DNA of 64,000 nucleotides from assembly GCA_017962545.1 (NCBI GenBank), contig JAGCVD010000036.1, positions 33,148 to 97,147 of the forward strand, given 5' to 3'. A model generated the notes under the pieces. That model did no database searches and had not been told where the DNA came from. It saw only the letters and a list, made by a program, of their open reading frames with translations. This DNA is from Bacteroidales bacterium. GTDB taxonomy: Bacteria > Bacteroidota > Bacteroidia > Bacteroidales > P3. This document shows positions 1-29,747 of this stretch, piece by piece. The stretch's first letter is position 1, and each line of letters begins with the position of its first letter. The position numbers and the translations under genes are program-made.

Positions 1-420
1 CCGCCACAGGGCAAGAACTTGTCTACACCTGCTGGTTCGACCAAGACTACAGCACCCACCAGACCTACAACCTCGCCAACGGGATCAACCTCATCGATGT
101 CACCACCCTCAGCGAGGGGTATCATATCCTGCACCTGCGCCTCGGCAGAGGTTCAAGTTCCTCCGCCCGTAGTTTCCTTTTCTACAAACCCATTGAGGAG
201 GACACGACCGTCTCAGGGCAGGAACTCGTCTACACCTGCTGGTTCGACCAGAACTACAGCACCCACCAGACCTACAACCTCGCCAACGGGATCAACCTCA
301 TCGATGTCACCACCCTCAGCGAGGGGTATCATATCCTGCACCTGCGCCTCGGCACAGGTGCAAGTTCCTCCGCACGTAGTTACCTTTTCTACAAGCCCAT
401 GCAGCAGGACACAACGGCGA
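1..420 (+). repeat. 207-bp (69-codon) in-frame tandem repeat: two near-identical copies plus a degenerate third
   Basis: nt 9-215 align with 216-422 at a fixed offset of 207 with few mismatches. The peptide is QELVYTCWFDQ(D/N)YSTHQTYNLANGINLIDVTTLSEGYHILHLRLG.G.SSSARS.LFYKP. The window starts inside a copy. Confidence 0.9.
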
Positions 421-3400
421 TAGACGCTTCGCAGTCAACGCTGGTCTACTGGTTTGATGGGGAGACAACCCCTCACAAGATTTCACCGGCGTTAGGTTCC
501 CATATCATAGTGCCACCCGCTATTGAGTGTGGGGAACAAGGCTATATCCATACTGCGCTGAAGGTGGGTGGACGGTATGTCACTTCCGTCAGGAGCCATC
601 GTTTTGTAATGATGGACTCTGTATGTTGCATTGCCCCGTTGTATGTGACCGTTGACAGCATCACCGAAACGGGTGCACGTATCCATTGGGCATACAACCG
701 CGAGGAGAATTTCTCCATTGCCATTGATACCATCCCATTCTCTCCCGATAGCACTACGCCAACTCTGTCCCTGACAGATACCGTCTACCGCTTCTCCGAC
801 CTGCATTCCGCCAAGGACTACTACTATGCTGTGAAAACCGACTGCGACACGCATTCGAATCCTTGGGTGACGGGTACATGGACAACGATCTGCCGGACTC
901 TGACGCAGACGGTGGTGGCAACTTGCGACAATTATACATGGCGCGGACAGGATTATACCCAAAGCGGTGCGTACCGTGACACGGTGGTGAGCGTGAATGG
1001 CTATGACGAGACATGCGACAGCATCTATGAGTTGCAGCTGACATTGCACTACAGCGACAGCGCGGTGGTGGACGTGACGGCTTGCCGCAATTACACATGG
1101 CACGACAGCACCTATACCGTCAGCACCGACACAGCGCGTTTCGAGACAACCACACGGCACGGCTGCGACAGCCTCGTGATCCTGCACCTGACGGTGAATA
1201 ACAACACCTATCCCGACAGCACGGTGTACGACACTGTATGTGGTCACTACGCATGGCATGGGCGGACATACAGTTCCACAGGTGTATACACCTACCCACA
1301 CGAATATGCCGGCTCCCCCTGTCCAAGCATCGACACGTTGCGGCTGACGGTGTACCCAAAGTACGACATCCATCAGTATGCAGCCATTTTCGAGGGTGAC
1401 AGCACATGGTTTGACGGCAACTGGTATACATTGGCGGGGGTGTATCGGGACAGCCTTGTTAGTGTAAACGGCTGCGACAGCATCAGAACTCTGCATGTGA
1501 GCATCAAACCTGTGGGGGTGCAGATTGAACAGTCCTCAGTGTGCCAGGGTGTGGCATACGCGGGCAACCATTTCCAAGTGCCGGAGAGCGTCACGGCCGT
1601 CTCCACGGGAGTGCTGATGATGCGCGATACATTGCGTAGCCGTGGATTCGACTCTATCATTTTTGGCTTGGATCTGGATGTGATGTTGGCACATCTGAAT
1701 CCTGTTAGGAATATGACACCGATACAAGGAGATACTATCCGGACTGGATCGATTGTGCTGCGATGGAATGCTGTTCGCGCTGCGACAGGATACGGGGTGT
1801 ATGTATGGAAAATCGGGGAGTCGATGCCTACAACACCGACATATACTACGCCATACACATTTCAACCCATTACCACCTACGATAATTACACTACATATAA
1901 TTGGAAAGTGGAATCGTTCAATCCATGCGATACGATAGATGGCACGGTGCAACAATATTCCATTTATAAACGACCTAAACTGATTGCTTGGAATGATACA
2001 ATCTTTTTTGGTGAAGTTGGGTTCAATCAATCAACAACCCGTAGCATAAGATTCGATGGTTCCAATCTGGTGGATTCCATTTATCTATCGCTGTATGGTG
2101 CTGACTCTGCCATGTTTGGCATCACATCTAATCGGTTGAACAGATTGGGTGGTAGTATAGATGTGACATTTACACCTACTATGGCTCAGCGCACGTATAA
2201 TGCCTATCTTGTGGCTGAAAGTGGAGGTTTGCAAGATACAGTATCTCTTAGTGGATTGTTGGCAGGATTTTATGTTTTTACCATTCAGCCGATAGATAGT
2301 ATACAATCACCATCCACGCCAGTCAATATCGTTGGCACGCTGACAGATGTGACTGGAACCCCATTGGAGAATGAATTGGTGGATGTGTATGTTACTATAA
2401 TGGGACGCACAATAATTGTCACTGATAACACAGATGCACAGGGGCACTTTGGTATGACCTACGTTCCCCTTACTTCTGAGTGTGGGTATTACGAAGTGGG
2501 AGCTGCTTTGCATGGAGACACGGAACGAGAGACACTCGAATCGTTCAATATCCCTGGTATAAGTATCGTTACTGTACGCCCTGTGTGGGTGGTAACACAA
2601 GGCGATACTTTAATGGGCAACATTGAGATACGGAATCGCTGCAATATGACGTTGCATAATATTACGGCATTAGGCAGTATTCTGCCAGCTGGTTTAATTA
2701 TCTCGTTCGATACTATAACACTTGCTCCATTTTCCAGTGCATATATGACTTTTTATTTGGTAGGTGATAGCGTCTCCCCGAACAACCAGTATGAGACGCT
2801 TCGTATCGCCACTAAGTGTGATGAAGGAAGACTTGCTAATTTGAATGCATATTACTACTGTCAAAGGCCTAGTGCTGACCTGCAAATAGCATTCGACAGT
2901 CTGGAATGTGCCATTGTGCCAGGTCAGCAGAAAGTGGTGGATGTAGCATTATACAACAATACTGACAACATTTTTCACAATGTGCAATTACAGATACCCT
3001 CAGGGCTCATCGGCGTGAGTTTACTGAAAACCGATAGTATATACAGCATTGCCCCGCATGACTCACTTTTCATACCATTGTTGATATACTTTCCTGACGG
3101 GACACCGCTTGCTCCCATCACTGGAGATTTTGTTGTGAGTGCCACGGGGATAGGTCCACAGTTGATACCTTTCGTACTAAACATGGTTTCTGATGCTGTG
3201 GGAAGTCTGCGTGTCATTGTTTCTAATGAATACACTTATTACAATAATGGTCCGCATGTTAGTGATGCTACAGTGTCTGTCGTTGGCTACTATAGTCTTG
3301 ACACTATTGCGTGGGGGGTGACGGGAAATAATGGACAGGTGCTGTTTGACTCGTTACCGGAAGGGTATTACATGCTACATGTCAGTGCACCAGAAAATAA

Positions 3401-6400
3401 TGATTTTTCGAAAATAATACAAGTCAAGGGTGGGTTGGTCAATCTGCAAAATGTTGATCTTGATTTCCAGGCGGTGACATATAGTTTTGAGGTGTACCAA
3501 AAAGATCTTGACGACCATTGGGGTGTAAGGCTAAAAACTGATTACAAGACCAATGTGCCCAAACCTGCAATCGTGCTAAATATACCGAAACTCAACATAA
3601 ACAATGATGGTAGTTTTAGTAGTTTTGACATAACGGCAACCAATTATGGATTGGTAGATTGCTACGATGTCTCGCTGATAATACCTACATCAGAGACGTA
3701 TGAGTTTGTACCATTAGTAGATGTTATTGATACAATAAAGGCTCTGAGCAGCGTGATGATTCCCTGTATGGTACGCAATAAGTTTATATACGATACCATC
3801 CAGTCAATTATAAGTTCAAGCCATTATGTGGCAGATACTACTTATTATATCCACACTTATACACAGATTTTTGAAGATTATTACGATACAATGATATATG
3901 TGCCCGTAACGGACACAATCAACGACACGATCACCCATGGTGTTGATGTTTGGGACACTTTTTTGGTTAGTTTGCCCCAATATGGTACGGACACTGTTGT
4001 GGATTCGGTGATAAAAAACATTATTTTAATAGATAGTCGGACATACGATACTCTAATAATAATTGGTGAGGAATCTTATCTTGAATACGGAAGTTGCGAA
4101 ACCTTGCCATTCCGATTGTTGGCACATTATAAATGTGACAATAATACCCAAAAGGAGGTCTTCTCGCATTTTGTCATAGAACCGATAGACTGTTCCACAA
4201 CAAAAGAAGAAGCCACAGAAAAAGCACGGAGAATAGGGGAATGTAGGAATTGTGGAGGTTGTATCGACTGTTATCACCCGAATCCAGATCCTCGGGTAGG
4301 CCCTGACCCGAGTCCGGTGCAGGATACAGGATTTATTTATCGGCCTGATATTAAATTGCCCAAGTTAATACTACCTGAGCTACCCCCAATCTTCACTCTT
4401 CCATGGGAATGTGAACCATGTTGGTATGCTGCATTAAGAAATGGACTTGAATGTGGGGGAAATATTCTGTTAACTATTGCTACAAATGGTATTTATACTC
4501 CATATTATAGAGCAGAAACCATAAAACAGGCATCATCAGGATTGAGTCATAGACCTGACGTATGGAGAATAGGTACAAGTGGACTTCATGAAGTCGCAAG
4601 TAATGATGCAATAGCGTACAGGGTTCAGCACACTGCATGGAAACGGGCTGTGCGTAGTAAGAATCCTGCCGATGTAACCAAAGCGGTAATAAGAGAAGGG
4701 TATAATTATACTAGGACATCTGTGAGGTATATGGATGAAGCTCTGTATTACAAGAAAATGAGTGATGCTGTTGACGCTTTCGGATATACAACAAGTTCCC
4801 TCGGTATAAGTAGGAATCTCTACGAAAAAGAGTATTTAGAGGCATCGAAAAATTTGATTTATATGGGGGTTGGGATGAAATTTCCTTGGATAGGGACTGC
4901 CATAGGGTGTCTCGAAAACGTAAAAGATGCTTGGAATATTTGTTTTGGTTCCTCATCTGTCTATGAGATACCATGGATGCGTTCCAGGGTTACCTCCGAT
5001 ACTATACTATATCCTACAAATATTCAGTATGTATTAGAATATTATGACACCATACATGCAATATGTAATAGGATATTGAACGATACTCTTGTTGTTTATT
5101 CTTCCCACCCAGAAATCGTCACTGATATAGTTTCTTATTTGGTCTCGGTTGATAGCGCCATTCTGGATAGTGTCTCTCGATGCTATGATACAACCATAAC
5201 TGTGATAGACACTTCTATTCTGAGAAGATATGTGGAACGATGGAATAGAACAATAAGCTACTATAAAAATGGTTGGATATCTCCTGAGTTTGTTCCTGAA
5301 GGTTTCTCTACTGACTATTTCTTTCTCGATACCAATACAACACAAAAATTAGTTGAATTAGAACTATATGCCATGGATCAAGATTATTGGTCAATCGATG
5401 AAATGATGGTTGCTACTATAGATTCTTTAATTTCATACCCCAATAAACGTTCCGTCTGTGCCGGTGTGTCTCTCCAGTTCTCGCAAGAGGTGGCCATGAC
5501 ACGCGAAGCTTTTGAGGGGATTCTCACTATCAAGAACCCGCACGACACCGCCGCACTCCGCAATCTGTCTTTGGCATTCACCGTGACCGACACGGCAGGA
5601 CACGACTGCTCCGACAAGTTCGACATCAGCATTCTCCGGCAGGAGGGCGTGGGTGCCGATAGCAGCATCGCACCAGGCAGTACTGGTACTGTCACCGTGC
5701 GCTTTGTGCCGCTCATGTCGGCAGCGCCGACAGACTCGGTGCCATATCTCTTCGGCGGCACTGTCGACTACACCAACCCCTATACCCACTTGGATGTCTC
5801 CGACGACCTGCGCCCCGTAAGGCTTACCGTTAGCCCCTCGCCCCATCTGCGCCTCGACTATTTCATGCCTCACGACATCATTGCCGATGACCCGATGACA
5901 GCACCTATGATAGAGTCCGCCGTTCCCGCCACCGTCGGTCTCCGTGTCCTCAACGATGGCATGGGCATCGCCAGAAATGTCCGTCTCTCGGCACTCTCCC
6001 TACAGATTACTGAGAACCGGCAAGGGTTGGCTGTCAACTTTTCCATGCTCAACACCATGCGCAATGGTGCCGGATTCTCCTTACCCCTTGGCGACATCTC
6101 ACTGGGTGCTATCAACCCGCAGAACACCCAAACGCTGGAGTATTCCTTTGTCAGTTCCCTGTTGGGAACACTGACCGTCCGCGACATTGAGGTTATCCAC
6201 AACAGCTCGGTCGACGACCACGACATGAACCTCGTGGATGCCTACGCCCACAAGCTTGTCCACCCCGTCATGGAGTACAAGGCAGGCTCTGACAGCATCC
6301 ATGAGTTCCTTACTGACGACGTTGCCAACGGTCTTGACCGTCCCGACAGCCTCTTCTTCTCTACCGGTCGCGCAGTCCCTGTCCTGATGGCAGACAGCAC

Positions 6401-8987
6401 CATTTTCAACCACTATGTGGAAGCGTTGGACACCATGGTGCAGGTGACCCTCTATCCCGATACCATCGGCTGGAACTACGGCACTACTGCAGATCCGGGC
6501 CGTGGCAAGTACGAGATTGTCTCCTGCGTCCGCGATGATAATGTCCGCATTCCCTTGGATAATGTCTGGCTCACTTTTGTTGACTTGCCTGATGAATTGG
6601 ATCCTGTGTATGTCAACAAACTGCACCTGCTTGACACCCTCCCGGAAATGCGGCCTACGGTCTATAATGTCACGTTCCGCCGCCTACCGGGTCTGCTGAT
6701 GGTGGACAGCATCACACACCTCCCGTTGGTGGACACCTACATTCCTGTCGACTCCTTCGTGGTGCATTTCAATAAGGGCGTCCTCGACACCACTTTCACC
6801 TATGCCGATCTCTCCCTCAAGTGCAATAACGGAGGGGAGATGATGGACAGCACGGTCACCGTCACGCGCTTGGATGACACCACCTTCAGTGTCGACATTT
6901 CCCGCAAGACCTATGGATTCGGCCTCTATATCCTAAAGGTGATGGCTGACGGCATCCGCGACTTGAGCGGCCACTATGGTATCGGCGGAATGGAGGCGCA
7001 CTGGGTGCGTACCACCTGCGACCCCTATTACGACAGCATCTCCCTCAGTGTCTGCGACAGCCTCCTGTGGCAGGATACCCTTCTGACTGCTTCGGGCATC
7101 TATTACGACACCTTGCCAGGAATGTATGGCTGTGACACCATTTTGGTGTTGAACCTCACTGTAAACTACAGCAACACGGCAATCGAGACCATCACCACCT
7201 GCGACAGCCTCACATGGCACGGCGCCACCTACGCCACCAGCACTAATACACCCACCTTCACCTCCCTGAATTCCGCAGGTTGCGACTCTGTGACCACCCT
7301 CCACCTCACCGTCAACTACAGCAACACGGCTATCGAGACCCTCACCACCTGCGACAGCCTCACCTGGCACGGCCAATCCTACACAACCACTACCTCCACA
7401 CCCACCTTCACCTCCCTGAATGCCGCGGGCTGCGACTCTGTGACCACCCTCCACCTCACCATCAACTACAGCAACGCGGCGATCGAGACCCTTACCACCT
7501 GCGACAGCCTCACCTGGCACGGCCAATCATACACATCCAGCACCTCCACGCCCACCTTCACCTCCCTTAACGCCGCAGGTTGCGACAGCGTCACCACCCT
7601 CCACCTCACCGTCAACTACAGCAATACAGGAACCGAAACCCTCACCACCTGCGACAGCCTCACCTGGCACGGCCAGTCCTACACCGCCAGCATCTCCACA
7701 CCCACCTTCACCTCCCTGAACGCCGCAGGATGTGACTCTGTGACCACCCTCCACCTCACCGTAAACTACAGCAACACAAGCATTGAGACCGTGACGGCGT
7801 GTAACAGCTATGTGTGGCACGGGACGGAGTACACCGCCAGTACCAATACGCCAACTTACACTACTACCAATGCTGTAGGTTGCGACAGCGTGGTAACACT
7901 GCACCTTACCATTATCGAGTGCTCGACAACGGCCATCACGGCCTGCGACAGCTACACATGGCATGGCGTCACATACACCTCGGGCGGGACATACATGGAC
8001 GGCACCGACACGCTGGTATTGACTCTCAACTACAGCACTTCCGCCACGGAGACGGTCACAACGTGCGACTCGTACACTTGGCACGGGACAACATTCACGA
8101 CAACGGGAACTGTGACCGATACGCTGACCAACGCTGCGGGTTGCGACAGCATGACGACCCTCAACCTCACCGTCAACTACAGCAACACAGGGACGGAGAC
8201 CGTGACAGCGTGCAACAGCTTCATCTGGCACGGGACGGAGTACACCGCTTCGACGGATACCGCCACCTACACAACTACCAATGCGGCGGGATGCGACTCG
8301 GTCACAACGCTGCTCCTTACCATCATTGAGTGCTCTACTACGACCATCACGGCTTGCGACAGTTACACGTGGCACGACAGCACTTACACGGTGAGTGGTC
8401 TCTACACAGACGGCGTCGACACGCTCGACCTCACCATCCACTACAGCACGACAGGCACAGAGACCCTCGCCGCCTGCGATAGCATCAATTGGCATGGCAA
8501 TACCTACACTGCCAGCACATCCACGCCGACATTCGACACGCTCAACGTATGGGAGTGCGACAGCACGGTTACGCTGAACCTCACCATCCACTACAGCGTG
8601 CATGACACGCTGACGGAGACGGCTGTCGACAGCTTCCTGTGGGATGGCAGGACACTGACGGAGAGCGGGAGTTATTCCTACGAGGGTTTGACAGTCGAGG
8701 GGTGCGACAGCATCGTGGTGCTGAACCTTATCGTCACGCACGACTCGACTTTCATCGACTTGCCCGACGGACGCGACATCCGCGTCTATCCCAATCCCAC
8801 CTCGGGATGGCTGACAATCGAAGCCGAGAATGTCATGGAAGTCAGGGTATTCGACAACCAAGGCAAACTGGTCAAAGTCTTCCGAAAGACGAATCCCATC
8901 GACTTGACAGAACTGCCCACTGGCCAATACCTGCTGCACATCTTCCTGCACGACGGCAGCGGCGTGAAGAAGGTCATCAAACGGTAA
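3..8987 (+). CDS. giant secreted multidomain surface protein (T9SS cargo), 5' end outside the window
   Basis: I hand-translated frame 3 from nt 3 to 398 and found no stops; the ORF track starts only at the first ATG (399). The C-terminus (IRVYPNPTSGWLTIEAE...GQYLLHIFLHDGSGVKKVIKR) fits the T9SS type-A sorting domain pattern. It has carboxypeptidase-regulatory-like stretches (e.g. VSDATVSVVGYY...GQVLFDSLPEGYYMLHV) and about 16 CxSxxWHG...GCDS modules near the start and the end. Confidence 0.85.
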   Translation, partial: ATGQELVYTCWFDQDYSTHQTYNLANGINLIDVTTLSEGYHILHLRLGRGSSSSARSFLFYKPIEEDTTVSGQELVYTCWFDQNYSTHQTYNLANGINLIDVTTLSEGYHILHLRLGTGASSSARSYLFYKPMQQDTTAIDASQSTLVYWFDGETTPHKISPALGSHIIVPPAIECGEQGYIHTALKVGGRYVTSVRSHRFVMMDSVCCIAPLYVTVDSITETGARIHWAYNREENFSIAIDTIPFSPDSTTPTLSLTDTVYRFSDLHSAKDYYYAVKTDCDTHSNPWVTGTWTTICRTLTQTVVATCDNYTWRGQDYTQSGAYRDTVVSVNGYDETCDSIYELQLTLHYSDSAVVDVTACRNYTWHDSTYTVSTDTARFETTTRHGCDSLVILHLTVNNNTYPDSTVYDTVCGHYAWHGRTYSSTGVYTYPHEYAGSPCPSIDTLRLTVYPKYDIHQYAAIFEGDSTWFDGNWYTLAGVYRDSLVSVNGCDSIRTLHVSIKPVGVQIEQSSVCQGVAYAGNHFQVPESVTAVSTGVLMMRDTLRSRGFDSIIFGLDLDVMLAHLNPVRNMTPIQGDTIRTGSIVLRWNAVRAATGYGVYVWKIGESMPTTPTYTTPYTFQPITTYDNYTTYNWKVESFNPCDTIDGTVQQYSIYKRPKLIAWNDTIFFGEVGFNQSTTRSIRFDGSNLVDSIYLSLYGADSAMFGITSNRLNRLGGSIDVTFTPTMAQRTYNAYLVAESGGLQDTVSLSGLLAGFYVFTIQPIDSIQSPSTPVNIVGTLTDVTGTPLENELVDVYVTIMGRTIIVTDNTDAQGHFGMTYVPLTSECGYYEVGAALHGDTERETLESFNIPGISIVTVRPVWVVTQGDTLMGNIEIRNRCNMTLHNITALGSILPAGLIISFDTITLAPFSSAYMTFYLVGDSVSPNNQYETLRIATKCDEGRLANLNAYYYCQRPSADLQIAFDSLECAIVPGQQKVVDVALYNNTDNIFHNVQLQIPSGLIGVSLLKTDSIYSIAPHDSLFIPLLIYFPDGTPLAPITGDFVVSATGIGPQLIPFVLNMVSDAVGSLRVIVSNEYTYYNNGPHVSDATVSVVGYYSLDTIAWGVTGNNGQVLFDSLPEGYYMLHVSAPENNDFSKIIQVKGGLVNLQNVDLDFQAVTYSFEVYQKDLDDHWGVRLKTDYKTNVPKPAIVLNIPKLNINNDGSFSSFDITATNYGLVDCYDVSLIIPTSETYEFVPLVDVIDTIKALSSVMIPCMVRNKFIYDTIQSIISSSHYVADTTYYIHTYTQIFEDYYDTMIYVPVTDTINDTITHGVDVWDTFLVSLPQYGTDTVVDSVIKNIILIDSRTYDTLIIIGEESYLEYGSCETLPFRLLAHYKCDNNTQKEVFSHFVIEPIDCSTTKEEATEKARRIGECRNCGGCIDCYHPNPDPRVGPDPSPVQDTGFIYRPDIKLPKLILPELPPIFTLPWECEPCWYAALRNGLECGGNILLTIATNGIYTPYYRAETIKQASSGLSHRPDVWRIGTSGLHEVASNDAIAYRVQHTAWKRAVRSKNPADVTKAVIREGYNYTRTSVRYMDEALYYKKMSDAVDAFGYTTSSLGISRNLYEKEYLEASKNLIYMGVGMKFPWIGTAIGCLENVKDAWNICFGSSSVYEIPWMRSRVTSDTILYPTNIQYVLEYYDTIHAICNRILNDTLVVYSSHPEIVTDIVSYLVSVDSAILDSVSRCYDTTITVIDTSILRRYVERWNRTISYYKNGWISPEFVPEGFSTDYFFLDTNTTQKLVELELYAMDQDYWSIDEMMVATIDSLISYPNKRSVCAGVSLQFSQEVAMTREAFEGILTIKNPHDTAALRNLSLAFTVTDTAGHDCSDKFDISILRQEGVGADSSIAPGSTGTVTVRFVPLMSAAPTDSVPYLFGGTVDYTNPYTHLDVSDDLRPVRLTVSPSPHLRLDYFMPHDIIADDPMTAPMIESAVPATVGLRVLNDGMGIARNVRLSALSLQITENRQGLAVNFSMLNTMRNGAGFSLPLGDISLGAINPQNTQTLEYSFVSSLLGTLTVRDIEVIHNSSVDDHDMNLVDAYAHKLVHPVMEYKAGSDSIHEFLTDDVANGLDRPDSLFFSTGRAVPVLMADSTIFNHYVEALDTMVQVTLYPDTIGWNYGTTADPGRGKYEIVSCVRDDNVRIPLDNVWLTFVDLPDELDPVYVNKLHLLDTLPEMRPTVYNVTFRRLPGLLMVDSITHLPLVDTYIPVDSFVVHFNKGVLDTTFTYADLSLKCNNGGEMMDSTVTVTRLDDTTFSVDISRKTYGFGLYILKVMADGIRDLSGHYGIGGMEAHWVRTTCDPYYDSISLSVCDSLLWQDTLLTASGIYYDTLPGMYGCDTILVLNLTVNYSNTAIETITTCDSLTWHGATYATSTNTPTFTSLNSAGCDSVTTLHLTVNYSNTAIETLTTCDSLTWHGQSYTTTTSTPTFTSLNAAGCDSVTTLHLTINYSNAAIETLTTCDSLTWHGQSYTSSTSTPTFTSLNAAGCDSVTTLHLTVNYSNTGTETLTTCDSLTWHGQSYTASISTPTFTSLNAAGCDSVTTLHLTVNYSNTSIETVTACNSYVWHGTEYTASTNTPTYTTTNAVGCDSVVTLHLTIIECSTTAITACDSYTWHGVTYTSGGTYMDGTDTLVLTLNYSTSATETVTTCDSYTWHGTTFTTTGTVTDTLTNAAGCDSMTTLNLTVNYSNTGTETVTACNSFIWHGTEYTASTDTATYTTTNAAGCDSVTTLLLTIIECSTTTITACDSYTWHDSTYTVSGLYTDGVDTLDLTIHYSTTGTETLAACDSINWHGNTYTASTSTPTFDTLNVWECDSTVTLNLTIHYSVHDTLTETAVDSFLWDGRTLTESGSYSYEGLTVEGCDSIVVLNLIVTHDSTFIDLPDGRDIRVYPNPTSGWLTIEAENVMEVRVFDNQGKLVKVFRKTNPIDLTELPTGQYLLHIFLHDGSGVKKVIKR
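7150..7760 (+). repeat. four near-identical 150-bp (50-codon) tandem coding repeats, the core of a degenerate array spanning about 7020-8740
   Basis: gcgacagcctcac(a/c)tggcac recurs at 7201, 7351, 7501 and 7651 (period 150). The peptide unit is T(I/L)TTCDSLTWHG.(T/S)Y...T(N/S)TPTFTSLN(S/A)AGCDSVTTLHLT(V/I)NYSN. Confidence 0.95.
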
Positions 8988-9012
8988 GCCTGTTGTCAGC
9001 GCTTACATACCA

Positions 9013-9046
9013 TAGAGGGGTCCCGCCGTCCGGCGGGACCCCTCTA
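9013..9046. terminator. perfect 15-bp GC-rich hairpin between convergent genes (candidate bidirectional terminator)
   Basis: tagaggggtcccgcc-gtcc-ggcgggacccctcta. It lies 26 nt after the giant gene's stop. There is only a weak T tract. Confidence 0.55.
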
Positions 9047-9208
9047 TTACAGTTATTAATCCTAAAAACCAAAGAGTTGGCACGTATGACAAAGTATAGC
9101 TTTCCTTTGATTTCCAAGTGCAAAGATACTGCCTTTCCGCGACATGAAGAGTCACTAATGGTAGTGATTTGCGAGGGGATTAGGTAGGGAAAGCCTCTGC
9201 GTCAGACT

Positions 9209-9781
9209 CTATGGTAGGAGGTTATGGAGTGTGGCATAGACCGTTAGGCCGGCAACAGACTTGATGCCTGTCTTGCGGGTGATGTTCTTGCGGTGGGTGT
9301 TGACGGTATGGATGGAGATGAAGAGTCGGTCAGCTATCTCTTTGCTGCTGCATCCCTGGGCGACAAGTATCAGCACCTCCCTCTCTCGATCGGAAAGTTC
9401 GTAATTCTCTTCCTCGGAGGAAGCCTCTGGCGTAGCCGCGAGACTGTCGCGGAGTATCTGTGAGACATGGTTCTGCGGTTCACGGATATCGAGGAGGGCT
9501 GTGAAAGACTGGAGGATACCCGGGTCGATATACTGGTAGACCAATCCGACAATCGACATGGAAGGACGTGCCTGCCGGAGGTCGGCAAGCAGCATGTTGG
9601 CAGGCACAGGGAGCAACGTGGGGTTGATGAGGAGGATGTCGGGTTGAAGGACCGGCAGACGCAGGACGAGGTCGTTGGCGTTGCGCAATGGGGCGAGGAG
9701 GTTGAACTCGCCATCAAGAATGGAGAAGAGTCCTTCGCGGATGATGTCGGAAGGCTCTACAATGAGCAAGTTGCCACTCAC
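9209..9781 (-). CDS. LuxR/GerE-family transcription regulator with a degenerate (pseudo-)receiver domain
   Basis: The C-terminus (LSDREREVLILVAQGCSSKEIADRLFISIHTVNTHRKNI) is a GerE-type HTH. The N-terminus has a receiver-like layout but reads LLIVEPSD where the acidic pair is expected and PDILLINP where the phospho-acceptor Asp is expected. Confidence 0.8.
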   Translation of the reverse strand: MSGNLLIVEPSDIIREGLFSILDGEFNLLAPLRNANDLVLRLPVLQPDILLINPTLLPVPANMLLADLRQARPSMSIVGLVYQYIDPGILQSFTALLDIREPQNHVSQILRDSLAATPEASSEEENYELSDREREVLILVAQGCSSKEIADRLFISIHTVNTHRKNITRKTGIKSVAGLTVYATLHNLLP

Positions 9782-10512
9782 CGCGACCTCCTTTCGTCCA
9801 CCATGCCTGCCGACTGGACTGATTGACCCGAAGCCTGGGCCGACAACTGGGTGACATAAGGCATCAGGACCTTTTCCTCGAGGAGGGCATGTTTCTCAAG
9901 GTCGGAAGAGAGCTGGAGAATGCTAAAGACCAGTTCGCTCAGTTCCTCGACCATCGGATTGCCCGGCAGGTATTTATAGAGTATCTGAGGGAGGTCGGAA
10001 AGCGACTCGACAAGGTCGGAATGGGAGTCGAGGAAGGTGGCGGCAATCTGTGCGGCTGACCCCTTCCCTTTCTGGAGCTGCTGGATGCAGGGGAAGACCT
10101 CGCGTTCCTCGTAGTCGAAATGGTCGGTGACCTCCTTGCGGTAGTCATCGATAAACTTGTGCAGCACTGCGGCATACTGCTGTCCGGCTCGGTCGCCGAT
10201 GCTGGTGAGGTGACGGACTATATGAGGCAGCCGCTCGTTGAGGTAGTAGCGGTGGGAGGCCTCCAGATAGGGGATAAGGCCACTGAGGTCGACATTCTCA
10301 TGCAGGGAGACAGGATAGTCGCTGAAAGTGTAGAGATTGCATACCAAAAGGAAGAATCCGACATCCTGTCCATATTGAGCGCAAAGTTCTTGGACGCTCT
10401 TTTCGCCAAAACCCAACGGGATGCCAAAACGGGGCACGACAAGGATGAGGGTATGGTTGGCCGCTATCATGTCGGCCATCTTGGTGCGAGGGGTGAAAAA
10501 GCCTGTTTTCAT
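9778..10512 (-). CDS. hemerythrin-like di-iron protein with a ScdA/RIC-like architecture
   Basis: I trimmed the start to ATG 10512 (MKTGFFTP...), 4 nt after the upstream stop. The tracked 381-aa ORF extends through the neighbouring gene in another frame. HHE-like motifs are present: DHFDYEEREVFP and LEKHALLEEKVLMPY. The N-terminus resembles ScdA_N. An ATGA overlap links it to the luxR-like gene. Confidence 0.6.
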   Translation of the reverse strand: MKTGFFTPRTKMADMIAANHTLILVVPRFGIPLGFGEKSVQELCAQYGQDVGFFLLVCNLYTFSDYPVSLHENVDLSGLIPYLEASHRYYLNERLPHIVRHLTSIGDRAGQQYAAVLHKFIDDYRKEVTDHFDYEEREVFPCIQQLQKGKGSAAQIAATFLDSHSDLVESLSDLPQILYKYLPGNPMVEELSELVFSILQLSSDLEKHALLEEKVLMPYVTQLSAQASGQSVQSAGMVDERRSR

Positions 10513-10516
10513 TTCC

Positions 10517-11977
10517 TTAGATTTTCGTATGAACATTGCGGCCTTCGACGTAAATGGCACCGACGGGACGTGCAGGACAATAGTATTCGCAGGCACCGCA
10601 GCCGATGCAGGCCGCCTCGTTGACAGAGACGACGGGATGTTCATTGCCAGGCATGACCTGGATGGCTCCCGTGGGGCAATGGCGCGAACAGGCGTTGCAG
10701 CTGACTCCCTGCGACAGCAGGCAGTTGTCGGGAAGGGTGACGGCATGCCCGATGGAGATAGCGCTCTTGTCCTCGGGGTCGATGGGTTTGATGGCCCCAG
10801 TGGGACAGACCTGGCTGCAGCGGGTGCAGTCGGGCGGACAGAAGCCATGCTCGAAGCCCAGTTCGGGCTGCATGAGGGTGGTGAGGTCTGTGGAGGGCCG
10901 CAGGATGCGGTGGGGGCACTCACTGACGCAGAGCTGGCAGGCGGTGCAGTGCGATGAGAAATGGTCCAATCCCTGTGCGCCGAAGGGTTTCAGAGGCACC
11001 CTACGCTCGGGCTGCTGTCTGCGCTGAAGGGTGGCAAGACCGCCATCGACTCTCTTTTCCTGCGCCTGAAGAGCCATGCCGGCACCCACAGCAGCCGTGG
11101 TGGCGAGGAATTTTCTCCGTGAGGGGTCAGTGCCGTCGGTCTTGTCGGTGGAACCGGCAGAAGAGGCTCTACCCATCTTTATCGCACCCTCCTTACAATT
11201 GGAGAGGCAGTCCATGCAAGCCACACAACGGGAAGTATCCACCGTGTGGTGCTCAAAGTCGATGCATTGTGCCTTGCAGTTGCGTTCGCACTTGCGACAG
11301 CCGACACACTTGTCGGTGTCGATGACAGGACGGAAGATGGCAAAGCGGGAGACGAGGCCGAGGAAAGAGCCCACCGGGCAGATGGTGTTGCACCAGAGAC
11401 GGCCCCAACGGAAAGAGAGGACACCCATCACCGCAAAGGTGACGATGGCCACGACAAGGGTCACGCCGCTCTTCACCCACACGTCGACGCTGTAGAAAGC
11501 ATAGCTGTCGGCACGCTCGGCCAACCAGGCCAACAGGTTATTGATGCCACGATAGGCTGGCTGGAATATCTCGGTGGCGACACGGCCGTAGGCACTGTAG
11601 GGTGCGATGAGGGCGGCGATGCTGCCCAGACCGAAGACCATCAGCAGCACGAAGACTCCCAACACCACATAGCGCAGGATATTGTGCGCCTTGTGGTAGT
11701 GGAAACGGTTCTTTTTAACCTTGCCTCCGAGCCACGAGAAACAATCCTGCATGACGCCCAAAGGGCAGATGACAGAACAGTAGACACGTCCGAAGAGGAG
11801 CGTGACAACCAACAGGAGGACCACGACTCCAACATTGAGGGCGAGGACGGCGGGCAGGAACTGCACTTTGGCCATCCAGCCGAGGTAGAGATGAAGTGCT
11901 CCCGTGAAGTCGAGGAACAACAAGGTGATGCCCACAAAGAATAGGGAGGCGAGGACGATGCGGATTTTGCGTAACAT
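10517..11977 (-). CDS. membrane-bound polyferredoxin (NapH/MauN-like 4Fe-4S protein)
   Basis: The N-terminal half has TM segments with CSVICPLG and CNTICPVG. The C-terminal half has several CxxCxxCxxxCP motifs (CVGCRKCERNC, CVACMDCLSNC, CTACQLCVSECP, CTRCSQVCP, CNACSRHCP, CIGCGACEYYCP). Confidence 0.8.
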   Translation of the reverse strand: MLRKIRIVLASLFFVGITLLFLDFTGALHLYLGWMAKVQFLPAVLALNVGVVVLLLVVTLLFGRVYCSVICPLGVMQDCFSWLGGKVKKNRFHYHKAHNILRYVVLGVFVLLMVFGLGSIAALIAPYSAYGRVATEIFQPAYRGINNLLAWLAERADSYAFYSVDVWVKSGVTLVVAIVTFAVMGVLSFRWGRLWCNTICPVGSFLGLVSRFAIFRPVIDTDKCVGCRKCERNCKAQCIDFEHHTVDTSRCVACMDCLSNCKEGAIKMGRASSAGSTDKTDGTDPSRRKFLATTAAVGAGMALQAQEKRVDGGLATLQRRQQPERRVPLKPFGAQGLDHFSSHCTACQLCVSECPHRILRPSTDLTTLMQPELGFEHGFCPPDCTRCSQVCPTGAIKPIDPEDKSAISIGHAVTLPDNCLLSQGVSCNACSRHCPTGAIQVMPGNEHPVVSVNEAACIGCGACEYYCPARPVGAIYVEGRNVHTKI

Positions 11978-12014
11978 GGCGGGTTATTCTTTAATCATCA
12001 TTATACATTGGACT

Positions 12015-16995: not shown

Positions 16996-17643
16996 CACCG
17001 CCACGACTACCTTGGCGTAGCGCAGCACTTTATCGTTCAGGTAGTATCCCTTTTCCACCACGTCGACCACCTTACCTTTCATGCTCTCGTCGGCGGCCGG
17101 GAACTGGGTGACAGCCTCGTGTAGGTTCTCGTCGAACTTCTCGCCCTTGGCCTCAATGGACTTGAGCCCTTTCTGGCCGAGGATGTTCATCAGCTTGTTG
17201 TAGATGAGTTGCACGCCCTCTTTGGCGCTTTCCTCGTCGCTCATGGCCTGCAGGGCGCGCTCCATGTCGTCGACCACGGGCAGGATGGCCTTGATGGTGT
17301 CCTTGCTGCCGTTGATGATAAGCTCGGCCTTCTCGCTGTTGGTGCGTTTGCGGTAGTTCTCATACTCCGAATAGAGACGCACGTACTTGTCGTTGGTCTC
17401 GGCCAGTTTCTCGCCCAATTCTTGCAGTTTTTCGGTCTGTTCGTCATGTTTGGAAGCATGTTTGTCATGCTTGTCGCGATGTTTCTTGCCGTCCTTCTTC
17501 TGTTCCGATTCCTCGACAGGGGTTTCGTCTGTAGTCCCAGTAGTCTGGTTTTCAGTGTCCACTTGCTCTTCTTCGAGTTCTTTCTTATCTTTGCTCATAG
17601 TATTGTCGTTTTTTATTCTACTATCCATCAAACCTTTTGCCAA
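16993..17643 (-). CDS. grpE: nucleotide exchange factor GrpE (start uncertain; alternative Met at 17598)
   Basis: Acidic N-terminus, then a GrpE core (YVRLYSEYENYRKRT...ILPVVDDMERA...VVEKGYYLNDKVLRYAKVVV). It lies immediately upstream of dnaJ. Confidence 0.93.
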   Translation of the reverse strand: MAKGLMDSRIKNDNTMSKDKKELEEEQVDTENQTTGTTDETPVEESEQKKDGKKHRDKHDKHASKHDEQTEKLQELGEKLAETNDKYVRLYSEYENYRKRTNSEKAELIINGSKDTIKAILPVVDDMERALQAMSDEESAKEGVQLIYNKLMNILGQKGLKSIEAKGEKFDENLHEAVTQFPAADESMKGKVVDVVEKGYYLNDKVLRYAKVVVAV

Positions 17644-17780
17644 AAGGGTGTTTCTGTCATTTTGTCACAGTCGACTGTATGTTCCCCATCTGATGAAGAG
17701 GCACTCCCGACAGTTCTGTTTTCCGTTTCACTCTCTATTAATTACAATGTCCCCGCTCTATATGGAAGACACGAAAGCCG

Positions 17781-19316
17781 TCACCAGACGAAGACATCCA
17801 TTGGAGACTTGGGACGGCGGGAATCCAGCCAGCGGAAGTCCTGCAGAACACGTTTCTCGGGGTCGAGTTTGCCGAGAGGGTAGGCGTTCATGTCGGGACT
17901 GCCGGAAGTCACGACCCTCTCGGGCGAGCGGTCTTTGAAGTAGATGCGCATGTCTGATCCTCTCCCCACGTTCACACCCACTATGCTCACACGTCCCGAG
18001 TCTTCGTCGGTGATATAATAGACCATCTCGGCATTGCCCAGGATGTCGGCATAATAGGGTTCTCCCTCAACAAAATGGACCTCTGTGTTGCGGCCTTTTA
18101 TCTGATTGAACTTGTCGGGGTCCAACTGCTCGGCACTGATGCTGTTGTTGCGCATATAGGCGATGGTGGGGCCGTTGGGACCATGGTACATCTCGATGGT
18201 GTCAGCCGTGCATTGATAGTCGCCATACCATAGCACTGGGTCACCATAGAGCTGCAGCAGCGAGTCCTGCACAGAGTAGTAGACCGAGTCGCACATGGCC
18301 TGACCATCTGTGCGGAAAGCTTTCACATGGTAGAAGGCGTTGAGAGCTGTGAATTCTTTGTTCTCGTTGTTGATGACGCGTATCGAGTCGGCATGGAGGT
18401 AGAGGGTGTCCTGCGGTGCGTCGGGGTTGTTCTCATCCTTGCCCACGAACTTCACCAATGCGCTGTCTGTGACGTAGGAAGTCTGCCGTTCGCGGTCGGT
18501 CTCGCCGTAGCGCCCCGAGCAGATGATTTTATTCACAGTGTCCTCCAGAACCACGCGACCGATGGCACGGCCGAACTCGGTGTCCTCGTAGTAGTGCAGT
18601 GTGTCGCAGCTCAGTATTTTCTCCATATTCTGGACGCGCGACGCCTTGGTGGAGTAGGCATAGCGGGTCTCAGTGTTGTAACTCCCGTTCTCGCTATAGA
18701 GGATAGAGGAGTCGGAATAGATGTACGTCGGGCTGCTAAATTCGGCCAGGTGGTCTTCCGTGCAATAGGTCAACGTGTCTGTCTCCAGGCGCATGTTCGA
18801 GTCCTGCAGCACCACCTGCACGTATATGTAGAATGTCTTGATGTCCGAATTGTAGTGCCCCACACGGCTCACTAGGCTCTTGTCCTCGTTGACGGTATGA
18901 CCCCAATTGTTGTAGGTGGCTGTTGAGGTGTTGCGGTCGTAGGAGAGGTGGTTGGTTGTCAGGGTGGTCTTGCCGTCTATCAGGCGAACGGTATCGGCCC
19001 AGATATCCACCACACGACTGATGCCGTCGTAGTAGAGCCTGTCGCCGTATATGGTTGTTGTGTCAGTGATTTCAATCTTGATGTGACCGTAGGCGGTGAA
19101 GTCGTTCTGCTCGGTGTTCAGCAAGGCCGAGTCGGCATACAATACCATGCCCTCATGCTCGGCGCGCACGCGTTTGTATAGGATCCACACGTCGTTGTTC
19201 TCCGGATCGCGTGTACCCATGCCAGCCGAGTAGGTGATAATTTTCTGCGCCGACGCTGTCCCCCACCCTACCAGGCAGGCCACCACACACAATATTCGCA
19301 CAAATGTCTTTTGCAT
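17781..19316 (-). CDS. OstA-like (LptA/LptD N-terminal-type) repeat protein, secreted
   Basis: Signal peptide (CLVGWGTASAQ). Repeated beta-jellyroll-like segments (ADSALLNTEQNDFTAYGHIKI..., LYLHADSIRV..., AFYHVKAFRTDGQAMCDSVYY) are typical of OstA_N-type domains. The assignment is from memory. Confidence 0.55.
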   Translation of the reverse strand: MQKTFVRILCVVACLVGWGTASAQKIITYSAGMGTRDPENNDVWILYKRVRAEHEGMVLYADSALLNTEQNDFTAYGHIKIEITDTTTIYGDRLYYDGISRVVDIWADTVRLIDGKTTLTTNHLSYDRNTSTATYNNWGHTVNEDKSLVSRVGHYNSDIKTFYIYVQVVLQDSNMRLETDTLTYCTEDHLAEFSSPTYIYSDSSILYSENGSYNTETRYAYSTKASRVQNMEKILSCDTLHYYEDTEFGRAIGRVVLEDTVNKIICSGRYGETDRERQTSYVTDSALVKFVGKDENNPDAPQDTLYLHADSIRVINNENKEFTALNAFYHVKAFRTDGQAMCDSVYYSVQDSLLQLYGDPVLWYGDYQCTADTIEMYHGPNGPTIAYMRNNSISAEQLDPDKFNQIKGRNTEVHFVEGEPYYADILGNAEMVYYITDEDSGRVSIVGVNVGRGSDMRIYFKDRSPERVVTSGSPDMNAYPLGKLDPEKRVLQDFRWLDSRRPKSPMDVFVW

Positions 19317-19447: not shown

Positions 19448-21010
19448 TCAATTGGCGCCGGTGCGGGAACCCATGCGGTCCATTGCGCAGCGGAAGCCAA
19501 TCCAGGAGGTGCTGCGGTCCTGATCGTAGTAGCGGCGGGTGCCACTCTGCATCCAGTAGGCGCGGTCTTTCCAAGAACCACCCTTGACAACGCGGACGCG
19601 GTTGTTAATCATCGAGGTGACATTGTTCTGTTCAGCCGAGTCGCTACGGTGGTACATATTGTTGGTGTACTCCTCTTGGCTGCGGGCGACGGTCTCGTCG
19701 GTGCCACCTTCCTCGTCATCGGAATCGGTACGCCAGCCACTGATGGTGGTGGGGGTGTGCGAGTCGTAGTCGTAGATGCTGGAGTTCCAGTCGCCATCCA
19801 AGTAGTTGATATTGTCGGCCTGGCGGTAGTTGCGGCGGTTCATGTCGTCGGGGACGTTGGTGTAGACAAGGTTGCCGGTCTCCTCATTGCGCATAACCTC
19901 TTCACCATCTTCCGAGAGGGCAACATACTGGTAGACATTACCACGGTAGGGGTTCAGGTCCTCACCACCGATGGGGCTGACATCTTTACGATAGACATCG
20001 GCGCACCACTCGCTGACATTGCCAGCCATGTGGTACAGGCCATAGTCGTTGGGGAAGTACCATCTGACGGGGGCAGTGTACTCCCAACCATCGTTGAGGT
20101 TGCCGGCCACGCCCATGGCGTCGCCACGCGAACGCTTGAAGTTGGCGAGGAACTGTCCGTAGTATTTCTTGTTGGCGGAACGGACGCTCTGACCGGCCCA
20201 TGGATAGGTCTTGTGCTCCACGACGCGCTCGTCGTAGGTGTTGCCGATCATGCCGAGGGCTGCGAACTCCCACTCGGCCTCGGTCGGGAGGCGGTAGTTG
20301 GGCAGGAGGATACCATCGGAACGGCGCACATTGCGGCTCTCGCCACCAGCCATGGGGTTAAGGTCGGGGATACCCTTTCCGTCGCCATTGTAGAGGCCTG
20401 CCAGATAGACATCGGTCTGGAAGGCTTCAGCGCCTGTCAGCTCGCTCTGGGCGAGGTCGATGATACCGGCGTCGACGAGGATTTTCTCATTGACTCGGTC
20501 GGTGCGCCATTTGCAGAACTGCGAAGCCTGCTCCCAGGATACGCCAACGACGGGGTAGTCGTTGAACATGGCGCACTGGAAGTAGTTCTCGACAAAGTTC
20601 TCACGCCAGGAGAGACGCTCGCGCCAGCAGTTGGTGTCGGGGTAGATTTGTTTGACCATCTCGGGGTACTCCTCGCCATAGGCGCGATTCATCCAATAGA
20701 CGAACTCGCGGTAGGCCAGGTTGGAGACCTCGGTCTCGTCCATATAGAAGGAGGAGACGGTGACGGTGTGAACGACATTGTTCCACTGGAAACGGGGGTC
20801 GTCGGCTACGCGGCCCATCTGGAAGGCACCGCCTTCGATGAACACCAGGCCGGGGCCGGTGATTTGCTCCGAGTAGGAGGAACGGTCAAAACCGCCCCAT
20901 TCGGAGTCGTTCAGATTCCAACCGGTAGTGGGCGAGGCTTCCTTGCTGCCGCAAGCTGCGAAGACGAGCACGGAGGCCATCATCAGGAACGAGAATTTGA
21001 TAATCTTCAT
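19448..21010 (-). CDS. gldJ: GldJ/GldK-family T9SS-associated lipoprotein (FGE-sulfatase-like fold), probably GldJ
   Basis: Lipobox (VFAACGSK). SUMF1/FGE-like motifs are present (FIEGGAFQMG, YRLPTEAEWEFAA, GNVSEWC, VKGGSWKDRAYW). There is no adjacent gldLMN, which favours GldJ over GldK. Confidence 0.7.
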   Translation of the reverse strand: MKIIKFSFLMMASVLVFAACGSKEASPTTGWNLNDSEWGGFDRSSYSEQITGPGLVFIEGGAFQMGRVADDPRFQWNNVVHTVTVSSFYMDETEVSNLAYREFVYWMNRAYGEEYPEMVKQIYPDTNCWRERLSWRENFVENYFQCAMFNDYPVVGVSWEQASQFCKWRTDRVNEKILVDAGIIDLAQSELTGAEAFQTDVYLAGLYNGDGKGIPDLNPMAGGESRNVRRSDGILLPNYRLPTEAEWEFAALGMIGNTYDERVVEHKTYPWAGQSVRSANKKYYGQFLANFKRSRGDAMGVAGNLNDGWEYTAPVRWYFPNDYGLYHMAGNVSEWCADVYRKDVSPIGGEDLNPYRGNVYQYVALSEDGEEVMRNEETGNLVYTNVPDDMNRRNYRQADNINYLDGDWNSSIYDYDSHTPTTISGWRTDSDDEEGGTDETVARSQEEYTNNMYHRSDSAEQNNVTSMINNRVRVVKGGSWKDRAYWMQSGTRRYYDQDRSTSWIGFRCAMDRMGSRTGAN

Positions 21011-25500: not shown

Positions 25501-25945
25501 TGAGGACAGCCGCAACGGGACCGTCAGCTACACCCTCGGCAAACTCGACGAAGGCCGCCACACCCTGACGCTGAAATGCTGGAACATTTTCAACTTCTCG
25601 GGTAGTGCGACCATCGAGTTCTGCGTGGTCAACGACAGGACCCCCCGCATGGCCAACGTCTGCGCCGCCCCCAACCCCGCCTCGGGACACACCACCCTAC
25701 GCGTGGAGCACAACATAGGCGGCACCATGAAGGACTGCCGGATAGACATTTATAACGCGATGGGAGCCCTGGTGCGCACCTTCACCCCCACCCCCGCCGA
25801 GGGGTCGAGCGTGGTGGCTGTCGACTGGGATTTCACTTCGGACGCCGGCGCTGGACTGAGCAACGGGCTCTATATCATGCGTGTCACCGCCACCACGGCC
25901 GATGACGAGCAAATTGTAGAGACAGCCAAAATCATCCATAGATGA
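22565..25945 (+). CDS. porU: type IX secretion system sortase PorU (C25-like peptidase)
   Basis: 1126 aa with a signal peptide. The N-terminus (GSWYRIPISQTGVYRLT) and the gingipain-like core (...LNYIGHGS..., TSTCSYGRYD, LLGDPALRL) fit the family. It has its own CTD-like tail and lies adjacent to porV. Confidence 0.85.
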   Translation: MRRIIPLRNIKAAWLLVFIIATAPQADAQTFTDHSRLAAGSWYRIPISQTGVYRLTVSEVPALNGANISRIALYGAPGGQLSTQLNDGQPDDLVPAAIEVVDANGNGTFDNNDYLLFYAEGPSVWRYSDGNQRFEYRHNTYATNNYYYLNADFSAPAADAGFLRVKTSSATSSNQGELTSFTGVAVMHDDKINPNEGGEGWMADKFTNSMRERTYELVLPGIQTGATIMARYGLASSSSQRTGFEMKYNSDARQHQLPQGDAYNTFIETFTPRTNSTIALTCTFRPAESNAVGYIDFIELNALAPLAYPGGQWTVRNTQRLGPGNRCRFAASGSGADLKVWDVSAPAQPEALTVQNNGNGFTFTAPTEVPGTYIAFKPSDARTPTGIVLIENQDLHGAEAPDLVIVTHADFSDQAERLADLHRLHDGMTVLVATQEEVFNEFSSGRKDPVSIRQLARCMQAKGESNGHSIKYLLLFGKGTYDNRNLLGSDARTVVTYQTPPTTDFAGSAYPSDDIYGLLTSASTLDISIGRLPAKNSAEARHLVDKIEGYMENKDLERSDIRGDWRNYVCLLSDDADPSSPGDTNFASSSEKTARLIKDLHPQYNIDRIYADAYIQQSGVDGSYYPDVNNALRQRINYGCLLLNYIGHGSDQYIGTERYMLLSDIDRYTNTDRLTFFVTSTCSYGRYDKVDGVSGGEYFLLADAAGIGVVAAARPISHIQRFNTDVCLFALDPANTIGDALRLAKNNTPVSRCIALLGDPALRLSIPENEVVVTKINERTVDSARADSAEVLSRVTVEGEVRNTEGDLLTDFDGEVFPIVFDREVTCHTLANDNDSTEVEFKQQKNILYKGRTAVTGGRFSYSFIVPRDVSFRYDYAKLSHYAHSDIAQASGEYSNILFGGLDETVVIDEVHPHVSIYLNDSTFRNGGLTNETPTLHAYLTDSVGINAAGSGLGHDITAIIDGNSYNMVTLNDFFEPSIEDSRNGTVSYTLGKLDEGRHTLTLKCWNIFNFSGSATIEFCVVNDRTPRMANVCAAPNPASGHTTLRVEHNIGGTMKDCRIDIYNAMGALVRTFTPTPAEGSSVVAVDWDFTSDAGAGLSNGLYIMRVTATTADDEQIVETAKIIHR

Positions 25946-29619: not shown

Positions 29620-29637
29620 GGAGCTGCAAGTTTCCAA

Positions 29638-29669
29638 AAAAGGGTGCCTTGGGGGCACCCTTTTCTTTT
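29638..29669 (+). terminator. rho-independent terminator after floA
   Basis: aaaa-gggtgcc-ttggg-ggcaccc-ttttctttt: a stem flanked by an A tract and a T run. Confidence 0.8.
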
Positions 29670-29685
29670 GTGTCCCGAAGAAAGA

Positions 29686-29717
29686 TTTGTCCAATTGGAA
29701 TAAATGTATTATCTTTG
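29686..29717 (+). promoter_or_regulatory. candidate Bacteroidota promoter (-33 TTTG, 20-nt spacer, -7 TATCTTTG) for the toxin-antitoxin pair
   Basis: TTTG at 29686-29689 and TATCTTTG at 29710-29717, about 30 nt upstream of ATG 29748. Confidence 0.5.
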
Positions 29718-29747
29718 CATTCAGAAGTATTCAAACGTATTACACCC

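Follow-up and report, generated by a model that had tools for sequence, protein, structure and literature searches.

The stretch analyzed here, referred to as the window, comprises 64,000 nucleotides (nt) of a Bacteroidales bacterium (contig JAGCVD010000036.1, positions 33,148 to 97,147). It begins inside a giant gene whose open reading frame (ORF) extends from nt 3 to nt 8987 (2994 codons) and whose product is predicted to be a type IX secretion system (T9SS) cargo protein. The middle of this gene, nt 1674–5450, departs sharply in base composition from both flanks. We consider it likely that this segment is one allele of a size-matched, in-frame, divergent cassette that came from a low-GC lineage and was swapped by recombination with a homologous gene. 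The gene is divided into the following features, all on the plus strand.

Nt 3–8987, plus strand: giant T9SS cargo gene, from ORF and translation; the 5′ end is truncated by the window.
Nt 3–1673, plus strand: N-terminal flank of host-like composition (GC 0.55; GC at third codon positions, GC3, 0.54–0.81), delimited by composition and by metagenome contig breaks.
Nt 1674–5450, plus strand: low-GC allelic cassette, allele A (residues 558–1816, 1259 codons), delimited by composition and metagenome contigs.
Nt 1674–3782, plus strand: cassette part 1, about seven predicted beta-sandwich (Ig/FN3/CarboxypepD_reg-like) domains, from an AlphaFold2 (AF2) model and a weak CarboxypepD_reg match.
Nt 3783–5450, plus strand: cassette part 2, family-specific, with conserved cysteines and a predicted helical part, from alignment A2 and per-block identities.
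Nt 5451–7022, plus strand: core of the C-terminal flank, host-like (GC3 about 0.72), from alignment A1 and from contigs of metagenome runs X22 and X13, which match again from nt 5451.
Nt 7023–8783, plus strand: about twelve 50-residue two-cysteine repeats, the same module as in the N-terminal flank, from translation and homologue alignment.
Nt 8784–8987, plus strand: T9SS type A C-terminal sorting domain and stop codon, from PF18962 and TIGR04183.

A first-pass annotation, made from the letters alone, had described a 3.8-kb low-GC segment within a single ORF, and the step is present in the computed GC and GC3 profiles. In 300-nt windows, GC amounts to 0.51–0.59 up to nt 1800, 0.35–0.46 from nt 1801 to 5400 and 0.54–0.61 from nt 5401 on, while GC3 along the gene falls from 0.54–0.81 to 0.25–0.47 and recovers to 0.63–0.84. 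By segment, GC is 0.409 for nt 1675–5450, 0.549 for nt 3–1674, 0.571 for nt 5451–8987 and 0.583 for the remaining window. For 1-kb intervals, mean GC is 0.581 ± 0.029 outside the segment (lowest value 0.495) and 0.415 inside it, more than five standard deviations lower; no second low-GC stretch of this kind occurs in the 64 kb. The lowest 1-kb interval outside the cassette lies at nt 29500–30500. A two-change-point likelihood fit to the third codon positions placed the borders at nt 1626 (support 1620–1692) and nt 5472 (support 5433–5514), with a fitted GC3 of 0.369 inside versus 0.736 outside and a log-likelihood gain of 205. The remaining structural claims of the annotation were borne out as well. 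The reading frame is open throughout, the antisense ORFs reported on the flanks (nt 492–1496, 5433–5873, 6099–6626, 6933–7526 and 7527–8951) were all seen, and between about nt 2030 and 5384 there is a single antisense ORF of at least 100 residues (nt 5034–5345). The two ends of the gene indeed share a repeat module, as residues 297–507 and 2548–2724 match the same 50-residue, two-cysteine repeats of the homologue P0007.

The compositional bias of the cassette is not confined to third positions. GC at the first, second and third codon positions is 0.46, 0.40 and 0.37, the residues F, Y, M, I, N and K make up 28.8% of the translation versus 22–24% in high-GC homologues, and G, A, R and P make up 20% versus 24–25%. 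These codon-position and residue values agree with those of the low-GC family members L005 and L017. Since the AT bias reaches first and second codon positions as well as residue composition, a low-GC background has presumably shaped the cassette over a long time. Amino-acid composition as the sole cause of the dip was considered and rejected, the step being largest in GC3. Nor is the dip a property of the whole family, because the corresponding segments of the relatives L002, L003, L004 and L010–L014 have a GC3 of 0.7–0.9.

To place the segment in its population, contigs from the Logan assemblies of public metagenome runs were aligned to the window; sequence without a match to the window at 80% identity or more is called unlike. 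In X4, a run from a different study, one contig of 6897 nt covers nt 325–7221 with 0 differences at a depth of 56.5, and the neighboring genes have depths of 50–59. The same mosaic lies on an independent European Nucleotide Archive (ENA) contig, L001. These data bear on the idea that the gene is an assembly chimera, joined from homologous genes of two organisms, one of high and one of low GC. In favor of that idea one could cite the metagenome-type source data and the conserved family blocks at both junctions. Such an origin is extremely improbable: the same mosaic, with all sampled words present, recurs in runs of at least two studies, junction-spanning contigs were found even in diverged backgrounds (3016 nt in X7, 820 nt in X10 and 464 nt in X8), and the even depth of the X4 contig in effect rules a chimera out. 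For annotation and binning this is a caution, as a 3.8-kb block 17 GC points off within one gene is here genuine biology and not the mark of a chimeric contig.

The same slot can hold a different sequence. In run X13, a single contig of 6941 nt at depth 25 spans the slot with an alternative allele, termed allele B. Its bases 1–1417 correspond to window nt 257–1673 (95.6% identity) and its bases 5171–6939 to window nt 5451–7219 (95.9%), and between these flanks it carries 3753 bases (1251 codons, in frame) that are unlike the 3777 bases of the window at nt 1674–5450. Contigs from four further runs, X22, X35, X33 and X25, cease matching at nt 1673–1676; the X35 contig (3296 nt) continues for 1857 nt past this left joint, and the X22 contig matches again from nt 5451. 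In all four runs nt 1921–5440 is uncovered though both flanks are present at 91–96% identity. Among the background pieces of X22, some agree with the window at 98–99% identity and others are more divergent, which indicates that a close strain is present in that run. X13 holds both alleles, A at a depth of about 3–5 and B at 25. The breakpoints seen in the population (1673/1674 and 5450/5451) lie about 25 nt and 5–10 nt from the borders first proposed by eye (1650 and 5455–5461). The ends of allele B translate to LTVIPSQLSAP... and ...DSLLLYPKKK, consistent with the family alignment, so that allele B appears to be homologous to allele A and very different from it. Residues 558–1816 are replaced in frame and like for like, at exact, recurrent breakpoints, and the two alleles co-exist.

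Comparison with homologues clarifies what the cassette replaces. The proteins P0004–P0009 (2670–2782 residues) are collinear with residues 8–2589 in a single high-scoring segment pair at 48–50% identity. By segment, identity to homologues is 43–56% in the N-terminal flank, 26–58% in the middle depending on the sub-block and 59–65% in the C-terminal flank, and cassette part 2 is the most divergent region of the family (26–39% in sub-blocks M3 and M4). As the homologues are collinear with similar identity in all three segments, the middle belongs to the ancestral architecture of the family. Judged from these alignments, it would have been replaced like for like by a diverged homologous version, with nothing new inserted. 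The first-pass annotation had proposed a graft of foreign domain-coding DNA into a native scaffold. The in-frame mosaic stands, as does a compositional and recent population history of the middle that is separate from its flanks; the graft of foreign domains does not, given the collinear full-length homologues P0004–P0009. An insertion of foreign domains into a scaffold formerly devoid of them would fit the composition step and the open frame, yet the homologues have the same domains in the same order and allele B fills the same slot at nearly equal length, which leaves this explanation hardly tenable.

Allele A itself forms an island of near-identity. In X7, X8, X10 and X12 it is 99.6–100% identical to the window, and the adjoining or accompanying flanks are only 88–97% identical. 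A contig across the left joint in X7 shows 12 differences within nt 1460–1674 and then 0–1 up to nt 3059; further cassette pieces from this run (nt 3047–3567 and 3836–4272) carry 0 differences, and its 3016-nt contig (nt 4271–7286) is free of differences up to nt 5542 and differs by about 9% beyond. Cassette pieces of X8, X10 and X12 have 0–3 differences per 0.7–1 kb, and their C-flank pieces are 87–97% identical. The best background pieces over window positions 9–29 kb reach about 87–89% identity in X7, about 85–87% in X12 and about 98.5% in X8. X22, X35 and X13 show the opposite contrast, with flanks at 91–96% and a cassette below 80%. Allele A is thus recently common to diverged flanks, and we infer that it is common, nearly unchanged, to lineages differing at the species level. 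A near-identical cassette beside flanks that differ by 3–12%, together with another cassette at the same place in close strains, argues that the cassette moves by recombination.

The course of events might be reconstructed as follows. Allele A would have a long evolutionary past in a low-GC lineage of this family, and a double crossover with such a homologous low-GC gene would have brought it into the high-GC gene. The left joint lies directly after the block ending ...GFDSIIFGLD and the right joint directly before the block SVCAGVSLQF...AMTREAFEG; both joints adjoin conserved blocks of the family and are situated at or near predicted domain edges. Joining could have occurred either by homologous recombination anchored in these blocks or, as suggested by a second chimera of the family, L009, by a homology-facilitated route at microhomology. 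Diversifying selection on the exposed part of the surface fiber may then retain, exchange and spread such cassettes; phage, protozoa or attachment and binding targets as the selecting agent would be speculation.

L009 is a buffalo rumen metagenome-assembled genome (MAG) whose version of the protein has 4171 residues. Its gene shares 98% identity with that of L017 over the first 6.5 kb; in the 600 nt leading up to nt ~6245 the two are 100% identical, and from there identity drops to ~68%. Past this point it is 97–100% identical to L010/L002, and GC3 steps there from 0.33 to 0.86, so that L009 combines an L017-like leucine-rich repeat (LRR) head with an L010/L002-like body. The joint falls in a 5-nt microhomology (ACCGT; nt 6230–6260), at codons L-T-V after GVDL, with no longer parental identity there, which suggests homology-facilitated illegitimate joining instead of classical homologous exchange. 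It lies no more than 3 codons from the left joint of the window gene after FGLD. In L007, likewise a chimera, the joint is displaced by about 65 codons in the 3′ direction relative to that of L009 and to the left joint of the window gene, which tempers any claim of an exact hotspot.

Several results weigh against the recombinational import of a low-GC cassette and have to be set beside the evidence above. A donor was not found: the best identity to the cassette was 48% among 5.8 billion 90%-clusters and 51% in an exhaustive search of 1.84 billion representatives. In segment trees with distant relatives, the topologies of middle and C flank did not conflict; the branch of the window sequence is longer in the middle (0.75 versus 0.29 in the C flank), and L008 behaves similarly (0.84 versus 0.33). 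With the distant relatives available, these trees are uninformative on the origin of the cassette. The joint of L009 is not a classical RecA-type exchange, and it is the continuity and depth of contigs, not isolates, that link cassette to background in the metagenomes. Finally, of the 30–33 nt readable at each end of allele B, GC is 53% at the 5′ end and 33% at the 3′ end. Allele B may therefore be AT-rich like allele A, and the low-GC middle would then be an old standing feature, with no recent import.

The last point leads to the most serious alternative, an old balanced polymorphism in which very divergent and possibly all AT-rich alleles have long segregated at the locus. It would account for the equal size and exact same borders of allele B, the 33% GC of the last 30 nt of B, the depth of the AT bias in allele A (first and second codon positions and residue composition) and the missing donor. 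The first 30 nt of B, however, have 53% GC and resemble the high-GC consensus (LTVIPSQLSAP versus LTVLPNNLA), and an unameliorated GC3 of 0.37 beside flanks at 0.74 speaks against long residence. In addition, regardless of how old the polymorphism is, an allele that is 99.6–100% identical beside flanks differing by 3–12% requires a recent transfer. Overall, we regard the old polymorphism as unlikely, and favor a recombinational swap with a homologous gene, by a homologous or homology-facilitated mechanism, with a probable low-GC ancestry of the donated segment.

Further donor searches gave a similar picture. A junction-spanning fragment of 241 residues used as query returned a single match at 47% and no donor. 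A scan of GTDB yielded eight uncultured rumen or gut Bacteroidales MAGs with at most 61% identity over the C flank, and a scan of JGI data yielded one relative at 64%; neither contained a donor.

Precise, recurrent borders and the joint presence of both alleles in X13 (depths of about 3–5 and 25) would also be expected from programmed variation within one genome, in which silent copies replace the expressed cassette by gene conversion, as at pilE/pilS or vlsE. This is very unlikely here, as no second copy of the cassette exists within the 64-kb window, the X4 contig crosses both junctions without branching, and its depth of 56.5 in the cassette equals the single-copy background of 50–59, which argues against an extra copy with other flanks in that strain. 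No significant att-like, flanking or template repeats were found at nt 1674 or 5450. A mobile element, a site-specific insertion, an invertible segment and a variable region of the type made by diversity-generating retroelements were rejected, since terminal or template repeats are missing and the host gene runs on through the segment in a single open frame.

Extending the comparison to the whole family, alleles A and B are both joined right after a G(L/V)D motif, and the joint of the independent chimera L009 lies no more than three codons away. Modules of two GC3 classes (about 0.35–0.45 and 0.7–0.9) circulate in genomes of 49–58% GC, and L005 and L017 combine low-GC3 heads and middles with higher-GC3 tails. 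It is conceivable, if rather doubtful at present, that the giant T9SS family constitutes a module-exchange system across rumen Bacteroidales, in which head, core cassette and tail are re-assorted at a few fixed linkers. Were this the case, a hotspot of recombination or a mechanism dedicated to it would be implied, along with strong diversifying selection on the exposed cassette, for instance through phages, protozoa or shifting targets of attachment.

A separate observation concerns the relatives L002, L003, L004, L010–L014 and L016, whose loci have about 49–54% GC. Their entire giant gene is GC-richer (0.57–0.60, GC3 0.73–0.81) than these surroundings, which makes the high-GC class look atypical for the host there.

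The event belongs to a known kind, that of mosaic genes and intragenic recombination tracts, and the protein family is new and uncharacterized. Mosaic penicillin-binding-protein genes of Streptococcus and Neisseria arise by homologous recombination between lineages. Mosaic tet(O/W/32) ribosomal-protection genes have been described in gut and rumen bacteria (PMC5181394). Like the gene studied here, both consist of in-frame blocks with sharp borders and with separate histories of block and flank, and yield a functional chimera exchanged within a shared habitat. In contrast to them, the present case concerns an uncharacterized T9SS surface gene of about 9 kb with a 3.8-kb block and a GC3 gap of 37 points, no donor was found, and nothing comparable to an antibiotic stands out as the selective agent. 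For gut commensals, gene-specific sweeps and tracts of recent recombination have been reported (PMC10852326, PMC13251907). They resemble the island of allele A in that a near-identical stretch is seen across otherwise diverged genomes from different hosts or samples. The tract described here differs in lying within a gene, in having fixed borders and an alternative allele alongside it, in coming from the rumen, and in being traced through contigs and not phased genomes.

Polymorphic toxins, contact-dependent inhibition (CDI) proteins and Rhs proteins undergo cassette swapping at a conserved junction motif, and their variable module often has a lower GC content. The present protein shares with them its giant size, its secretion and the division into a conserved scaffold and a variable module. 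Here, however, the variable module is internal, 1259 residues long and composed mostly of beta-sandwich domains and a cysteine-containing helical region, and domain searches and inspection of the downstream genes returned no match to a toxin family, no orphan cassette and no immunity gene. Flavobacterium johnsoniae secretes the large fiber or adhesin proteins SprB and RemA through its T9SS. With these and with the grappling-hook protein GhpA of Aureispira (PDB 9flp), the giant protein has in common a T9SS C-terminal domain (CTD) and thousands of residues of tandem beta-sandwich repeats. The resemblance is one of build only, with TM-scores of just 0.15–0.22 and no match at the sequence level to a solved structure.

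The locus thus shows, at base resolution, an intragenic cassette that moves between diverged lineages of rumen Bacteroidales, and both alleles are visible in public metagenomes. It marks residues 558–1816 as the part under diversifying or exchange pressure in a widespread giant T9SS family, and this part is therefore a likely interaction surface. The practical impact is modest because the function of the protein is uncharacterized.

As to the protein itself, the true gene start lies 324 nt upstream of the ORF in the window. The missing N-terminus is supplied by P0002, a near-identical protein of 3052 residues encoded on L001, which adds 108 residues including a Sec signal peptide that starts MKRWLLFSILLSGWWGLAMA (read by eye). 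The N-terminal flank contains 69-residue tandem units, an FN3-like stretch, four of the 50-residue two-cysteine repeats and a conserved block ...LRSRGFDSIIFGLD that ends at D557. The sorting domain (residues 2928–2994) scores 44.1 bits against PF18962 (cut-off 27) and 46.1 bits against TIGR04183 (cut-off 23). Apart from this CTD, nothing scored above threshold in the Pfam/NCBIfam search, which gave sub-threshold matches to CarboxypepD_reg and Big_1, and PDB sequence and profile searches gave no match for the protein outside the sorting domain. From its sequence features, the product is an uncharacterized T9SS type A cargo, a fiber-like cell-surface protein of about 3,050 residues made by an uncultured rumen member of the Bacteroidales, with beta-sandwich and cysteine-linked repeat arrays besides the signal peptide and sorting domain.

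For the first ~700 residues of the cassette (558–1260), the AF2 model has a mean confidence (pLDDT) of 73 and is all-beta, with about 7 predicted beta-sandwich domains. A Foldseek search with this model retrieved generic tandem-Ig matches only (TM-score 0.15–0.22), namely ciliary central-pair proteins, macroglobulin (MG) domains of alpha-2-macroglobulin, titin and, at rank 33, the neck of GhpA. Giant proteins commonly contain this part, and 1802 library proteins match it, chiefly within residues ~625–1260. The model of the last ~560 residues (1261–1818) has a pLDDT of 45 and is too poor for use. In alignment A2, the conserved cysteines of cassette part 2 include a W-x-C-x-P-C motif. The C-flank core opens with the most conserved motif of the family, SVCAGVSLQFxQEVAMTREAFEG, and alignment A1 has a mean column identity of 80%.

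All runs that contain the sequence are ruminant gut metagenomes, and the named relatives are exclusively MAGs of uncultured Bacteroidales, recovered from buffalo, goat and other gut material; the cassette was found in no RNA run. The window also encodes T9SS machinery, a PorU-like Peptidase_C25 protein (nt 22565–25945) and a GldJ/PorK-like FGE-sulfatase protein (nt 19448–21010), as well as DnaJ, LptD and similar genes, and this gene content points to a Bacteroidales chromosome. The genes 3′ of the giant gene, encoding LuxR-type, hemerythrin and polyferredoxin proteins, lie on the opposite strand.

Directly upstream of the giant gene, both in the same strain and in relatives, lies a gene for a secreted protein of 344–377 residues lacking a Pfam match (L001 8913–9980; L002 8825–9958; L003 8837–9946; L004 8945–9979), which is probably a conserved partner gene. 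The L001 and L002 versions are 31% identical. In L002–L007 the gene order is conserved: ispG, Smr, Mur ligase and HD genes are followed by the partner gene and the giant gene, then by an extracytoplasmic function (ECF) sigma factor gene with genes for a 250- and a 377-residue protein, and finally by SpoU and SufBD. The strain of the window has different neighbors, with a DUF2589 cluster upstream (seen in L001) and the LuxR/hemerythrin/polyferredoxin genes downstream (nt 9000–12000), suggesting that the gene pair moved or that the locus was rearranged.

Two minor observations concern the cysteine repeats. When the repeat regions were compared (window nt 7530–8990, L001 nt 17400–19159), the L001 copy, otherwise identical, turned out to be one 50-residue two-cysteine repeat shorter near the C-terminus (2944 versus 2994 aligned residues), with identity breaking at residue 2512, which reflects either copy-number variation or assembly collapse. 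Moreover, many metagenome contigs join the N-terminal to the C-terminal repeats (nt 1184 to 7578 and 1192 to 8627, within window regions 1159–1200 and 7400–8600) at depths several-fold above single copy. Most likely these derive from other repeat-bearing paralogues or organisms, and some may represent deletions between the two arrays.

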